This document shows positions 15,724-41,016 of a DNA stretch of 64,000 nucleotides, in pieces. The first letter of the stretch is position 1. Each line of letters starts with the position of its first letter. Position numbers and translations under genes: made by a program. A model generated the notes under the pieces. It saw nothing but the letters and a program-made list of their open reading frames with translations. It searched no databases and was not told the origin of the DNA. The stretch is from Escherichia coli (GTDB lineage Bacteria; Pseudomonadota; Gammaproteobacteria; Enterobacterales; Enterobacteriaceae): NCBI RefSeq assembly GCF_030013595.1, contig NZ_CP122770.1; one strand, 5' to 3'.

Positions 15724-15989
15724 TTATCGGAAACCTTCCTGCTCATTTCATCCCGCCATGCAGCGGCAGAAGATTCGACCATGTCATGGGGAAGCACATC
15801 GCCGCGCTCGAGTTGCTGACGTCCTGCCGCAACCTGGTCACGGAACCAGGTATTATGCTGCCGTTCAACGGTCTGGCGCATAAAATCCCGAATTAACTGA
15901 GAGCCATTACGGTCCATGCTTTTTGCAGCGGCCATAAAAGCATCCTTCAGTTCAGCGTCGATTCTTAAACTCATATTAACCTGTGCCAT
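15720..15989 (-). CDS. RHH-type antitoxin (ParD/RelB-like) of the ParE/RelE pair
   Basis: 89-aa protein with N-terminal MSLRIDAELKDAF RHH-like segment, directly upstream of and overlapping the toxin gene. Confidence 0.75.
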   Translation of the reverse strand: MAQVNMSLRIDAELKDAFMAAAKSMDRNGSQLIRDFMRQTVERQHNTWFRDQVAAGRQQLERGDVLPHDMVESSAAAWRDEMSRKVSDK

Positions 15990-16599
15990 TTATCACCTCG
16001 TCATTACTACGTATATACACAGTATATAACGATTCAGATATCGTCACCAGGATATGCCGCGCCAGCGGCATGGAAGGCGGCACGCTGTGGTTACATGTGA
16101 TACCGGAGTAAAACCGCCGAAGCCCGGCGTCAGCCGGTACTGATTGATAGATTTCACCTTACCCATCCCCAGCCCTGCTAAGCCATACCCGCTTTCAGCC
16201 ATGAGACAGTTTCTGTGCGCGGTCGGAGTGGTCCCGACGAGGGTTTACCCGAAGTCGGGGCGTATCTCCGCGTTAGCGGGCCGTGAGGGCCGCTTACGAG
16301 CGTGTACTGAGGACTTCCAGCCAGAAGACTGGCAGCGATGACAATGTAGTTACAACATTCATAATTAAAAGCGATGTTGTTCCCGCCCTTCGGGCGGGGG
16401 CGGCCTCGCTTTTCAGTTATGAGGGGTGGGCACGGTGCTGCGTTTGTGTGGTGTTTTTTATTCCTGATGTTTTCGCGGTGGTTTCAGAACGGTGAGGTTC
16501 GGGGCCCGCGCGTTAGCGTGGGAGGTGCTTTTAGATTCTGAGCGGCGCGGCCTTGGCCGCTGCAAGCGAAGGCCTCTTTGTGTTTGTTCACGGTGGTTT

Positions 16600-16896
16600 C
16601 AGAGATAAAGACTTTCCCTGCGGCGAAGCAACGCAGGGGATTAAATAATGGGGTTAAGACTATATTGCAGGTTTGCTGTTTCAGGTTTGCAGCTTCTTAA
16701 AGTTTTTTGTTTGCGGATTTATGTGGATAACTGAAACAACGTGGCCACGTTCTGATGACTGATGCGTGGTTTTATGGGCAGATATGCCCCTCTGAGGGGA
16801 TTTAAGGTGATTACTGCGGATTTTGGGCTGAGCGGAACCAGCGCCGAAAGCCCCGGAGGGGCTGGTGATGATTCAGTGCTGAGGGAATGGTGCTGT
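16600..16896 (-). other. IncI1-type replication origin region (CIS/oriV) downstream of repZ, with a DnaA box
   Basis: DnaA box TGTGGATAA at 16721-16729 (complement of TTATCCACA); GC-rich hairpins (AGCCCCTCCGGGGCT, CCCCTCAGAGGGG) directly after the repZ stop; position matches ori location in IncI1/IncB replicons. Confidence 0.5.
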
Positions 16897-17928
16897 CTAG
16901 TGCGGCGGTGGGGCAGCCAGCGTCAGTTCAAGCTGACGCAACTCCCTGATGGCCAGTCGCTTCAGATGGTCATCGGAACAAAAATAGGCTTCATCCGGCG
17001 GCAGACGCTTCCTGAGATATTCTGCCATCTCATGAATCTGCTGGTCGGCAGGCAGTTTCTTCAGGCGTCTGGCGCGCTTACTGGCTGCTGCTTTCGCACG
17101 ACGGTGTTTCAGCGCATCCTGACTGCGCTGCAGATACCAGCGTTTTCTGGCCGCATGTACGGAGATATCTTCATCCTCACGCAGAACACCTTCCCGAATG
17201 AGCTGCTGGCGGATTTCACTTTCACGCAGTCGTTTCTGCTGCTGTTCGTGAAGTTTTACCATGTCGACGCCCAGCATCTGCCAGCCTGCCGGTGTTATCC
17301 AGACGTAACGAGGCAGACGCTGGCGGGTTTCACGGTCCCACAGGGTTTCATCTGAAACACCCAGCACACCAAAACGTACCTGTTCGGCCAGCAAACGGGA
17401 AAGGCGGGAGACCGTCACTTCCAGTTCCGGAATAACCTTCCCCTTGCTGTCTTTCGGGCTGATTTCTCTGGCCAGACGGGAAACACTCATGCCTACGGTA
17501 TGTGTGCCCGCATCACTGAAGCTGACCAGAACCGGCCAGACGGCATCGAGGAGGCGTTGTTTTTCCGGACGGAAAGCATATTTGCGACCGGCATACGTTC
17601 GTTTCTGCACGTAAAAAGGATGCAGAGACATGTGCATGCGCAGGCTCTGCTCGCCGGTCACCGGGTCCTTTTTCACCAGACGGTTGTAGGCGTGCCCGAG
17701 CTGCCCGCTCAGCGCCTTATAGCGCTCAGGACGATACCAGGACGGATTTTCGCATTTGGGTTTGGTGGAGTGCTCACCACGACGACGCTTCGTGCGCTTC
17801 CTTTCCGGTTCAACCAGGAAAGTGGTCGCCCTTCCCGCTTCATAGTCTTCCCAGAAACGGATCTGCTCTTCGGGTGCTAACTGACTCCAGTGTACTGCGT
17901 TATATGGAGTATTCTTCAGACCTGCCAC
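16897..17928 (-). CDS. repZ: RepZ replication initiator (IncI1/IncFII RepA1 family)
   Basis: Characteristic RepZ sequence (..GLKNTPYNAVHWSQLAPEEQIRFWEDYEAGRATTFLVEP...); no in-frame ATG near the 5' end, so the start is placed at the GTG at 17928 next to the repY stop; exact start uncertain. Confidence 0.9.
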   Translation of the reverse strand: MAGLKNTPYNAVHWSQLAPEEQIRFWEDYEAGRATTFLVEPERKRTKRRRGEHSTKPKCENPSWYRPERYKALSGQLGHAYNRLVKKDPVTGEQSLRMHMSLHPFYVQKRTYAGRKYAFRPEKQRLLDAVWPVLVSFSDAGTHTVGMSVSRLAREISPKDSKGKVIPELEVTVSRLSRLLAEQVRFGVLGVSDETLWDRETRQRLPRYVWITPAGWQMLGVDMVKLHEQQQKRLRESEIRQQLIREGVLREDEDISVHAARKRWYLQRSQDALKHRRAKAAASKRARRLKKLPADQQIHEMAEYLRKRLPPDEAYFCSDDHLKRLAIRELRQLELTLAAPPPH

Positions 17929-18005
17929 AAGCTGTCGCTTATGGCGGAGCGATTGTGCCGTGTATTTATACACTGCACAGGGTTGAATCTCTGGTACGGT
18001 TTCAT
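17916..18005 (-). CDS. repY: RepY leader peptide (29 aa), translationally coupled to repZ
   Basis: ATG at 18005, MKPYQRFNPVQCINTRHNRSAISDSLWQV, stop TGA at 17916-17918 overlapping the repZ 5' region, as expected for the IncI1 repY-repZ arrangement. Confidence 0.7.
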   Translation of the reverse strand: MKPYQRFNPVQCINTRHNRSAISDSLWQV

Positions 18006-18019
18006 TATACTTTACCCGT

Positions 18020-18091
18020 ATTCTGTGAGGCCCCCACTATCTTTCGTCGTTCCGCCAAGTTCGTAAGAAAGATAGTGGGGGTTTTCCTTTT
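18020..18091 (+). ncRNA. inc: Inc antisense RNA (replication-control countertranscript) with terminator hairpin
   Basis: Perfect 15-bp stem CCCCCACTATCTTTC / GAAAGATAGTGGGGG (18031-18081) with loop containing CCGCCAA (complement of the rep-mRNA rUUGGCG loop), followed by TTTTCCTTTT, on the strand opposite the rep mRNA leader. Confidence 0.55.
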
Positions 18092-18378
18092 ATGGCTTCC
18101 GGAACATCTTCAGTCTTCTGACTTACTGCCCGTACATGCCATCTCTCCTGAATGCCTTATGGCGCATTCTGCCGTCCGGCTTTCGCCGGTTTGCTCCACA
18201 GAGTGCCACTCTCTGCACAGCTAATAACAGCCGAAATATACCCGCTTTACGTTAATTTGAAAAGCATTACAACGATCTCTTCTCTTCCAGTGCCTCCTCA
18301 CTGATACCTCTAATAAGTTAATCTTGACCTACGTCAAAAAAATAAAATCTATTTTTAAAAGCAGATTTTTCTGCTTTA

Positions 18379-18527
18379 GATCTTTCTTTTGGATTAAAAG
18401 ATCGACTTTTGTCCTACTCACGATCATTTATCTTACAACCGATCTACCTAACAGAATAATATTCTGTTTTAATGCAATTAAACGATCTAAATAACCTTTA
18501 AAAAATCATTTTGTAGATCATTCGATC
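18379..18527. promoter_or_regulatory. Cluster of seven GATC (Dam) sites upstream of the rep promoter
   Basis: GATC at about 18379, 18400, 18422, 18441, 18484, 18517 and 18524 within 150 bp; near-palindrome AACAGAATAATATTCTGTT at 18451-18469. Confidence 0.3.
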
Positions 18528-18624
18528 GTAAATAGAATAATTCTTAGATGATAAAACCATTTGTTACACAACCCGCCAATTGTGTAACAACAGCCTCTAC
18601 AAGAGCATATTTGTTCATATGTTC

Positions 18625-18745
18625 GTCAGAACTGCGGATTGTCTGGACGAGGGTCAGACACCGTTTCGTGCATATGGACCAGCATGTTCGAACGCCACAA
18701 AGCAGAAGCATCATGCCTGGATCGCTTCGGCGCGGAGCGTTAAGT
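18625..18745 (+). repeat. Conserved leader element, copy A (hairpin plus GGCGCGGAGCGTT 3' motif)
   Basis: Roughly 120 nt alignable with the copies at 19690 and 39418; preceded by the palindrome TTGTTACACAA-N8-TTGTGTAACAA (18561-18590). Confidence 0.5.
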
Positions 18746-19081
18746 TTTGACGCTTTTTTGTATGTTTTTTAAGCTGTTAGTTGACTCGGTGCGTTATACT
18801 AAGTACCCTTTACTGGTCACAGGCAAAACTGTGATCGGGCGTAGGAACCCGCGTAGTCATCGTCGGCGCAGAAGTTAATTTCTTCATTTGGCGTCGTTTT
18901 TTGCCATACCATAAAGACAGGAACTTGTATTTCTTGTCGTCATCTATGGTAGCTCAGGCGGGGCAGGCATTAGCCTGGCCGGTTTCCGATGACGCCGGTA
19001 TTCCTACCCCCGTCTGGGCTATCACCAATGAGCGTAGGAACTCGGTGATAGCGTTTTTAGTTGTCATCGGAGACCTTTGCT

Positions 19082-39742: not shown

Positions 39743-40201
39743 ATGAACCGTATTATACCTGCGGGGTGTCTTGCCGCCCTTTTTCTGGCTGGCTGCAACT
39801 CCCCTTCTCAGCATACTCCTGTTCCGCGTAACTACGGTGCTGCCTCTGATGTGGCGGTTACCCGGCACACTCAGTACACATTATGGGACAAAGGTGTGTT
39901 TTCCGGCCAACTTCCGGTTTCAACGGGGTCTCATCTTCTGACAGCTAACAGCGATCGCCTTTCCTTTGACTGGGAAGGTGATGCAATTGAATTACTGAAC
40001 GAACTGGCCAGAGTCAGGGGGATGCAGTTTAACTACAATGGTGTCCGCCTGCCGTTACCAGTCAACCTTCACGTCCGGGATATGACGTTTTCCAATACGT
40101 TGAGACTTATTGAAGCCCAGACAGCCTGGAGAGCAACAATCCATCAATATCCGGGCTTGTTACAGGTCAGCTTCATGCAGCCGGAGAACCGGAAAAAATG
40201 A
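39743..40201 (+). CDS. traH: TraH, lipoprotein (DotD-like)
   Basis: 152-aa protein with lipobox LAGCNSP. Confidence 0.75.
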   Translation: MNRIIPAGCLAALFLAGCNSPSQHTPVPRNYGAASDVAVTRHTQYTLWDKGVFSGQLPVSTGSHLLTANSDRLSFDWEGDAIELLNELARVRGMQFNYNGVRLPLPVNLHVRDMTFSNTLRLIEAQTAWRATIHQYPGLLQVSFMQPENRKK

Positions 40202-41016
40202 AAGCACTCACCTCTCTCATTTTGCCAGTAATACTGCTTACTGGTTGTTCTTCTTCCCCTACCATCTCGCCAGGTGGTGTCAATACGCCACCACCTGACA
40301 TTAATGCATGGCTTAAACCACGAAGTGAAAAGCCGGATAGTCTGTCAGAAACACGCTGGAAAATGCTGACCGACGCAGGTAAAACGCTTGGATTTCGTGG
40401 TGGCAAGGCTCAGCGTTCATGGGAGCTGATTCAGGCACTCAACGCCCGGGAAAGCACACTTAATGCCTTATACGATTTCCGGCCACTGATTAGCCCGGAA
40501 GGCTGGCTACCTCCGGTTATTGATGAAGCACAGGACGTAGCTCATATCACGCCAGATCAAATCCGGACCTCTTCCCGGGTCTGGACCATCATTCGCCCTG
40601 AACGCTTTGTCAGCAATCCACCGGGCTGGCGTGACTGGCTTCTCCGGGGGCTTTCAACAACAGCCACTCCGGGTACAGAAGGCAGCGTCGTTCCAGAAGA
40701 CAGCTTGCAACGAAAAGTGTGGGAAACCGCATTACGGCAGGGATGGCAGGAAGGAAGACAAAACGCCGACCTGACGCTTGAAGCCAACCAGAAAACCCTC
40801 ACCCGTGATTACCGGGGCATGATGCTGTACTCACTTCTCTGGCGTCAGGGCATGATCACCCGTCCGGATGTTTCTGATCAAATGCAAACCGTTACAGGTG
40901 ACGGGAAAAAACTGGTTACTGGAGATCGTGTTCGTCGCCTTAAAAATCATGCGGAATTCAATCTTCAGAAATCTCACTGGCGTCCGCTTACAGGCACTGA
41001 AGGAGGCTCCCGATGA
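40198..41016 (+). CDS. traI: TraI, lipoprotein (DotC-like)
   Basis: 272-aa protein with lipobox LTGCSSS; coupled to traH. Confidence 0.75.
   Translation: MKALTSLILPVILLTGCSSSPTISPGGVNTPPPDINAWLKPRSEKPDSLSETRWKMLTDAGKTLGFRGGKAQRSWELIQALNARESTLNALYDFRPLISPEGWLPPVIDEAQDVAHITPDQIRTSSRVWTIIRPERFVSNPPGWRDWLLRGLSTTATPGTEGSVVPEDSLQRKVWETALRQGWQEGRQNADLTLEANQKTLTRDYRGMMLYSLLWRQGMITRPDVSDQMQTVTGDGKKLVTGDRVRRLKNHAEFNLQKSHWRPLTGTEGGSR

Follow-up and report, generated by a model that had tools for sequence, protein, structure and literature searches.

In plasmid R1, two Tus-binding sites, terRL and terRR, lie between oriR and the site at which the leading strand starts (PMC10331603). Of the two forks, the counter-clockwise one is stopped at once by terRL, and the clockwise one copies the plasmid until it halts at terRR (PMC10331603). 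When Tus is absent, multimers and rolling-circle intermediates of R1 accumulate (PMC10331603), and inheritance of the plasmid becomes unstable. The repA4 region of the NR1/R100-type replicon likewise has ter sites, and the region was described in work on an IncF plasmid as important for plasmid stability (PMC4398462). Both the layout of R1 and the phenotype of tus loss are taken here from the literature.

For R1, Masai and Arai reportedly found in 1989 a G site, about 400 bp downstream of oriR, at which primase alone primes the leading strand. Tanaka et al. are said to have described an ssi signal near the origin of ColIb-P9 in 1991 and to have compared G sites in 1994.

The DNA analysed here, which we call the window, is a stretch of 64,000 nucleotides from an Escherichia coli contig (NZ_CP122770.1), presented as one strand (+). 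A preliminary description had singled out positions 16140-16560 as a GC-rich, hairpin-dense non-coding block distal to the origin. It had suggested either a single-strand initiation or primosome assembly site for lagging-strand synthesis, or the remnant of a small mobile element. We find that the block combines a conserved module with the distal edge of the origin and is not one element. In our judgement it is likely that the block is a start-and-stop replication module, located beyond the origin of RepA/RepZ-type plasmids (IncFII and the I-complex), together with the distal edge of that origin. The module is real and functional-looking, and it is already known biology: the ter and G-site module of RepA-type plasmids. 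Its features are collected in Table 1.

Table 1. Sequence features in and around the block, in window coordinates.
Feature	Position	Strand	Basis or remark
Terminator-like hairpin CGCCG-GGCTT-CGGCG, then GTTTTAC	16115-16129	-	Consensus scan; near the left end of the module
Candidate primase-dependent priming signal (G site), leading strand	16211-16310	+	Homology, fold, conservation, R1 layout
Candidate primer start 5′-CTG-3′, context TACTG	16307-16309	+	Conserved block ends at its C
Alternative primer start, second 5′-CTG-3′ between hairpin B and Ter	16329-16331	+	13/13 close copies
Predicted Tus-binding Ter site	16343-16365, core 16347-16360	-	23-mer 5′-ATTATGAATGTTGTAACTACATT-3′ (16365 to 16343)
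Hairpin C, 47 nt: outer stem AAAAGCGA / TCGCTTTT, G-T-rich middle stem, tip CCCGCCC-TTC-GGGCGGG	16367-16413	+	
I-complex-specific stretch between shared module and origin core	16432-16560	.	IncFII similarity lost at 16431/16432
Direct-repeat copy 2, TTCRCGGTGGTTTCAGA	16587-16603	+	Inside the origin, outside the block
DnaA box TTATCCACA	16722-16730	-	Perfect; read from the sequence; repZ-proximal end of the origin, outside the block

A conserved, structured module beyond the origin

The replicon is an I-complex plasmid with an initiator ORF of 358 codons at 16897-17973 (-). Rfam identified the repZ pseudoknot (RF01087, 194 bits) and a CopA-like antisense RNA region upstream of this ORF. The Rfam matches lie at 17941-19029, upstream of the repZ 5′ end and overlapping it, and the scan with Rfam 15 gave no match at E <= 1 within 16000-16900. 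The block falls within a 907-bp non-coding gap that runs from the yacA start at 15989 (-) to the repZ/repA stop at 16897 (-). Best among the matches listed is a Salmonella IncI-gamma/K1 plasmid with 99.9% identity, which annotates repA, yacA and yacB at the same places. The DnaA box of the window aligns with that of R100 oriR (L006 39845-39853) and lies between the block and repZ. The block is therefore beyond the origin as seen from repZ, where the preliminary description had placed it.

Our analysis confirmed that the block is non-coding, GC-rich and hairpin-dense. Its G+C content is 0.52-0.60 over 16100-16599, compared to 0.45-0.47 in 200-bp windows on either side. When 16140-16560 was folded as single-stranded DNA, the + strand reached -81.9 kcal/mol against -66.0 +/- 4.6 for shuffled sequences (z -3.44, with 0 of 100 shuffles as good), and the - strand gave z -2.54. 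The density of hairpins therefore exceeds chance, with the + strand favoured. This signal is uneven along the + strand: 16205-16315 and 16360-16420 stand out (z -3.76 and -5.2), and 16490-16620, which includes the palindrome GCGGCC-TT-GGCCGC (16547-16560), folds at chance level (z -0.39). The inverted repeats noted at the outset thus divide into two kinds. CCCGCCC-TTC-GGGCGGG, at 16382-16398, is the tip of hairpin C, but the "GGCCGCGCCGC-type" palindromes do no better than shuffled sequence.

The conserved module spans 16055-16431, the left three-quarters of the block. By direct alignment, window 16000-16431 is 92% identical to R100 (L006 40141-40571), in a segment that starts 472 bp and ends 902 bp downstream of the repA1 stop. 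Similarity to R100 and IncFII stops sharply at 16431/16432. The window shares with the repA4 region of R1/R100 the order of origin, Ter and priming block, the polarity of the distal Ter site, and a covarying hairpin between the Ter positions. It differs in having no terRL (the position reads TTCGCGGTGGTTTCAGA), in a repA4 frame that is not open, and in its RepZ-type initiator and origin core. In the comparison with IncI1 origin-flanking sequence that the preliminary description had proposed, the stretch proved almost identical in the prototypes ColIb-P9 and R64, with only scattered differences across the whole repZ-yacA gap. Any ssi mapped in ColIb-P9 is therefore present here as well.

The Ter site and the candidate priming block

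The description of a single block holds in that the stretch is structured and non-coding, but it contains at least three conserved parts in addition to the origin edge, and the predicted Ter site had been missed. The Ter core consensus GNRNGTTGTAAYKA (positions 6-19, G6 included) has a single exact match in the 64-kb window, where 0.06 are expected. Alignment identifies this site as the homologue of the distal R100 Ter (L006 40212-40225). R100 has two exact Ter cores, inverted, at L006 40076-40089 (-) and 40212-40225 (+); their G6 ends are turned toward one another, in the arrangement of a fork trap. No close copy departs from the core of the window site, and a Serratia homologue (L023) carries a single mismatch.

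We calibrated polarity on TerB of MG1655, which lies just upstream of tus and reads 5′-AATAAGTATGTTGTAACTAAAGT-3′ on the + strand. At the non-permissive face of Ter, C6 is on the leading-strand template (PMC10331603). The Ter site of the window has its G6 end toward the origin and C6 on the + strand, which is the template of the leading strand when a fork heads from the origin to lower coordinates. The non-permissive G6 face thus points to the origin, so forks from the repZ/ori side should be arrested. Judged by its polarity and by its position between the origin and the priming block, the site appears equivalent to terRR of R1/R100. The chromosomal Tus-Ter trap (TerA-J) has the same core consensus with G6 and is likewise polar, but it consists of two opposed groups of sites opposite the origin, whereas the plasmid has a single site beside a unidirectional origin. 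The role of the plasmid site is presumed to be stopping over-replication after one round.

No second Ter site with two or fewer mismatches, and hence no paired fork trap of the kind known from R1/R100 and R6K, was found between 16361 and 18263. In a census of Ter sites, all IncFII-type copies had two, 136-138 bp apart. The distal site alone was present in 8 of the 9 I-complex copies, and the remaining copy, a hybrid, had both. At about 16478-16491, the counterpart by alignment of the IncFII terRL core, the sequence is GCGGTGGTTTCAGA in the window and TGTTGTGGTTTCAGA in ColIb-P9, each without G6 or AAC. This position looks like a decayed Ter site. Most of the I-complex copies sampled lack the second Ter site, so the R1 model is not transferable to them unchanged.

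On the far side of Ter is a hairpin block, 16211-16310, which we read as a primase-dependent G site that would prime the leading strand. On the + strand it folds into a closing stem (16212-16221 with 16301-16310) around hairpin A (16224-16270) and hairpin B (16271-16298). As single-stranded DNA the + strand is also the more stable, at -28.3 kcal/mol (z -3.76) versus -20.9 (z -1.9) for the - strand. The block is about 99% identical to R100. Across 13 plasmids (IncI1, IncI-gamma/K1, IncFII and IncFIC), 16211-16307 is invariant at all but 2 positions, unpaired positions included. The 37 nt after 16307 vary freely in the same plasmids, and 2-nt indels precede Ter.

More distant homologues came from a pattern scan that covered one genome per species. 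The block was found in plasmid contigs of Serratia marcescens, Erwinia sp., Klebsiella michiganensis (two contigs) and K. pneumoniae. In the distant homologues from Serratia and Klebsiella, the pairing of hairpin A is kept through 3 compensatory pairs; the pairs of hairpin B and of the closing stem are almost all invariant and so carry no information on covariation. Several unrelated assemblies in the scan also carried the block, in copies that closely resemble E. coli plasmid sequences.

Two CTG trinucleotides on the + strand are candidates for the primer start. The CTG at the edge of the conserved block is kept in 9 of the 13 close copies and altered in 4, and the one nearer to Ter is kept in all 13. 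Three distant homologues (Erwinia, K. michiganensis) lack a + strand CTG in the interval from hairpin B to Ter. A primer begun at a CTG on the + strand extends to lower coordinates, away from the origin, as the Ter polarity and the description of R1 both demand. In R100 the block lies 230-330 bp past the end of oriR, and 419 bp separate the CTG from the DnaA box of oriR. The reported distance of "about 400 bp downstream" fits the R100 block only if it is counted from the oriR start.

A priming site on the - strand was also considered. CAGC at 16333-16336 is a CTG on that strand and is kept in all homologues. We rejected it as the main reading because synthesis would head toward the origin and because hairpins A, B and C are weaker on the - strand. 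A small hairpin at 16320-16333 is plausible-looking but broken in 10 of the 13 copies, and was set aside.

The single-strand initiation site put forward in the preliminary description is thus largely right for 16211-16310, given the R1/R100 homology and the hairpins on the template strand, but the strand to be primed would be the leading and not the lagging one. The suggestion of a primosome assembly site fares less well, since priming in the R1 model is of the primase-only G4 type and does not use the PriA primosome. For PriA-dependent assembly sites (the phiX174-type ssi), we know of no usable sequence consensus.

The G4-type origins of phages G4, alpha3 and phiK resemble the candidate in having stable hairpins on the template strand followed by a CTG on the 3′ side. 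The sequence TACTG is shared with G4, where the primer starts at the CTG in CTACTG, 3′ of stem-loop I. G4 differs in having three independent stem-loops, whereas in the plasmid block a stem closes off two hairpins. The spacing from hairpin B to the CTG is 11-14 nt in the plasmid block, compared to 4-5 nt in G4 and alpha3, and the CTG is not conserved in the distant plasmid homologues. Local alignment to the phage G4-type origins gave scores of 25-26, within the null of 27 +/- 4 and without significant similarity, and BLAST of 16040-16620 against 50,697 phage records returned chance matches only. Identification by way of phage G sites therefore fails at the level of sequence. To our knowledge, phage and plasmid G sites have been reported to bear little mutual resemblance, so similarity to G4 is a weak criterion. 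A search of the literature by sequence strings found primer coincidences only.

Hairpin C, the origin edge and competing explanations

Hairpin C abuts the G6 face of Ter and falls in the interval that separates the two Ter positions in IncFII plasmids. Its fold is strong as single-stranded DNA (z -5.2) and stronger as RNA, where the + strand reaches -40.3 kcal/mol (z -6.7) versus -24.6 for the - strand; the G-T pairs of the middle stem form on the + strand only. RNAalifold on 9 diverse copies gave 25 pairs, and compensatory changes affect 7 of these. The tip occurs as CCCGCCC/GGGCGGG, CCGGCCC/GGGCCGG, CCGGGCC/GGCCCGG and CCCGGCC/GGCCGGG, and among close copies a single allele accounts for the covariation. 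In a consensus scan, 16376-16404 of the + strand is terminator-like, with an A-run before it and a T-run after it, and the T-run itself pairs with the upstream A-run. Hairpin C is probably an intrinsic terminator or insulator, with a role as single-stranded DNA equally possible.

The second terminator-like hairpin, at 16115-16129, is conserved in the IncI and IncFII copies and folds weakly better than shuffles (z -1.8). Transcripts that run in the repA direction would be halted by it ahead of the yacAB promoter region. Together the two hairpins raise the question of whether the block is only a transcriptional insulator, with both acting as intrinsic terminators that shield the origin and the toxin-antitoxin promoter from transcription, and the remaining conservation hitch-hiking. 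The terminator-like matches at 16376-16404 (+) and 16129-16115 (-) speak for this explanation, as do the A-tract and T-tract that flank hairpin C, its strong covariation and its high stability as RNA. But insulation leaves unexplained the exact Ter consensus, the near-total invariance of 16211-16307 including its unpaired positions, and the strand bias of hairpins A and B, neither of which has a T-run. We regard insulation as improbable as the whole account. It is compatible with a start-and-stop module, as a sub-function of hairpin C.

The right quarter of the block, beyond the limit of IncFII similarity, has a different make-up. It holds a T-rich run, the decayed position of the second Ter site, the first copy of a direct repeat, a small hairpin at 16505-16522 and the palindrome that folded at chance level. 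The repeat, TTCRCGGTGGTTTCAGA, occurs as TTCGCGGTGGTTTCAGA at 16472-16488 and as TTCACGGTGGTTTCAGA within the origin, with 16 of 17 positions identical. By our own estimate about 1e-3 such pairs would be expected by chance in 911 nt. The direct repeats of the preliminary description are therefore real, although the positions given there (16485 and 16582) were about 10 bp off and the second copy falls outside the block. The shorter motif GTTTCAG has 4 occurrences in 16481-16737, and the motif or the direct repeat is a candidate for a role such as RepZ binding.

These features might suggest that the whole block belongs to the origin proper, as an initiator-binding or unwinding element, and that there is no separate module. 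The part to the right of 16432 lies no more than about 300 bp from the DnaA box and includes the repeated GTTTCAG, and the + strand is strongly G- and T-skewed over 16300-16900. But the oriR of R100 (188 bp, L006 39845-40032) has its end aligned at about window 16535, on the origin side of the terRL position. Furthermore, 16055-16431 is 92-100% identical across replicons that have diverged far more in their initiators and origin cores. A module shared despite diverged initiators argues against initiator-specific binding, and we consider this explanation very unlikely for the block as a whole.

It is harder still to credit that the conserved sequence encodes a small protein, either the IncFII "RepA4" or the hypothetical protein of 46-52 aa found in RefSeq. 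In R100, a 128-codon ORF (L006 40032-40418) does cross the ter sites and the G-site block, and some records annotate a hypothetical CDS of 141 nt that corresponds to window 16044-16202 (-). In the window, the repA4 frame is closed and no - strand ORF of at least 30 aa covers 16203-16457. Local ORFs are at most 70 aa, their reading frames are not conserved, and neither they nor the repA4 frame match Pfam; the earlier finding of no convincing ORF is upheld. The substitutions also do not look codon-like: invariant blocks stand beside variable ones, with the 2-nt indels before Ter.

The module is widespread. Against a database of 72,556 plasmids, megablast found it at 92% identity or higher in at least 5000 plasmid records among the matches listed, and many IncFII plasmids among these matches align only over window 16000-16432. 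The distance between module and repA is constant in IncI1, IncI-gamma/K1, IncFII and IncFIC replicons, and the genes downstream of the module vary (yacAB, other RelE/ParE pairs, pemIK or IS26). Similarity between plasmid lineages breaks at about 16054, 16334, 16426-16432 and 16522-16530. Breakpoints this sharp indicate that the module has been swapped among replicons by recombination. The same breaks would speak for a recombination scar or for the remnant of a small mobile element, but the latter proposal, from the preliminary description, was not borne out, and this explanation has next to no probability: the module keeps its place relative to repA in all replicons examined, it shows no transposase ORF, terminal inverted repeat, target duplication or Pfam match, and its internal elements have recognisable replication functions.

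A proposed replication cycle and a possible half fork trap

If the module acts as its homologues in R1 are described to act, replication of this plasmid could proceed as follows. RepZ and DnaA would open the origin at the DnaA box, and DnaB would unwind the DNA toward lower coordinates. The exposed + strand at 16211-16310 would then fold into two hairpins and a closing stem, which DnaG primase could use directly as a G4-type G site. The primer would begin at or near the CTG at 16307-16309, and the leading strand would extend from it away from the origin and around the plasmid. On its return through repZ and the origin, the fork would meet Tus at Ter, whose blocking face is originward, and be arrested a few tens of bases short of the 5′ end of the strand that it began. 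Such an arrest would prevent strand displacement, rolling-circle over-replication and the formation of multimers. Hairpin C would most likely shield the Ter and origin region from transcription, which is the least certain of these steps. Between the origin and the priming site stands a Ter in blocking orientation, and this model does not account for the passage of the first helicase.

The census of Ter sites raises a further possibility. Most I-complex plasmids may run half a fork trap, in which the stop for over-replication has been kept and the site for unidirectionality has decayed. If this is true, the two Ter sites have separable and unequal selective value. Hairpin C, for its part, may be an undescribed functional element of RepA-type replicons, kept from Escherichia to Serratia and Erwinia plasmids. 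Beyond any terminator activity, it might be a single-stranded DNA structure that cooperates with Tus-Ter or with priming. We offer these two readings jointly as a tentative proposal, and a rather doubtful one.

Understanding of the mechanism is unchanged by these results. The module would set the start of the leading strand and the stop of the fork in IncF and IncI plasmids, which carry much of the antibiotic resistance of the Enterobacteriaceae. In two transposon-sequencing studies of I-complex plasmids, analysis is at the level of genes and the intergenic stretch falls outside it. Thousands of records leave the stretch unannotated or label it "hypothetical protein" or "repA4", and a Ter site with a priming site would be the proper annotation.

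Priming block and proposed primer-start trinucleotides

The proposed primer starts of the priming block, a candidate G site, are CTG trinucleotides on the + strand. A + strand CAGC at 16333-16336, which reads CTG on the - strand, is kept in all homologues, including the distant ones that lack a + strand CTG between hairpin B and Ter. A - strand start at this position would direct synthesis toward the origin.

Part of the priming block recurs in the F plasmid (NC_002483), at 690-728 of the sequence compared, or record positions 40689-40727 (33/39 identical, E 2e-7). This partial copy includes TCCCGAC and GGCCGTCAGGGCCGCTTACGAGC, has neither a Ter site nor a counterpart of hairpin C adjoining it, and has no CTG at the equivalent position. 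It could be a relic or one of the single-strand initiation (ssi) sites of F. Within the non-coding block itself, the exact 10-mer CGCGTTAGCG occurs twice, at 16269-16278 and 16509-16518. In the primase origins of phages alpha3 and phiK, the sequence GCGTTAGC likewise forms the loop region of stem-loop I.

Ter and its surroundings

The origin-proximal Ter, known as terRL in IncFII plasmids, is present in all IncFII-type copies and absent from eight of the nine I-complex replicons sampled. In the window, the counterpart of R100 (IncFII) 40076-40089 is 16472-16494, a decayed sequence that also serves as copy 1 of the direct repeat. A Ter-like sequence, GATCGTTGTAATGC, at 18264-18277 (-) shares the orientation of the true Ter and lies upstream of the repZ control region. 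It has two mismatches and is probably a chance match.

The true Ter is overlapped by a sigma-70-like promoter match at 16338-16365 (+), consisting of ATGACA, a 16-nt spacer and CATAAT (10/12 positions) and directed into hairpin C. The overlap recalls E. coli TerB, which overlaps the tus promoter, and the match in the window probably arises as a side effect of the Ter sequence.

Sharp breaks in similarity between plasmid lineages occur at about 16054, 16334, 16426-16432 and 16522-16530. One of them sits immediately outside Ter on its permissive side, and another falls just beyond hairpin C. Recombination stimulated by arrested forks could account for the breakpoints, as could simple module exchange.

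Origin motif and strand composition

A 257-bp stretch of the origin (16481-16737) holds four copies of GTTTCAG, three on the + strand and one on the - strand beside the DnaA box. The motif is commoner than expected across the whole window as well, with 30 matches against 9.9 expected. GTTTCAG could be an initiator-binding motif or another kind of origin motif.

The two strands also differ strongly in composition across the origin, with a GC skew of +0.2 to +0.33 over 16300-16900 and an AT skew that falls as low as -0.54 at 16400-16599. The skew over 16300-16900 is compatible with a strand-specific single-stranded phase.

A match to C4-type antisense RNA upstream of repZ

The window contains a cluster of Rfam matches, all on one strand, some 0.8-1 kb upstream of the repZ control region. 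A C4-type immunity RNA adjoining an I-complex replicon is unexpected. A short regulatory region has been reported upstream of repZ in pESBL (PMC4288162), and the matches listed here may be related to it.

Rfam matches upstream of the repZ control region
Feature	Window position	Strand	Rfam match
Phage P1/P7-type C4 antisense RNA	within 18803-19029	+	RF01695, 77.5 bits, above gathering score
C4 a1/b1 target	just upstream of the C4 match, within 18803-19029	+	RF03163, 32.9 bits, below gathering score
isrK	overlapping, within 18803-19029	+	weak match
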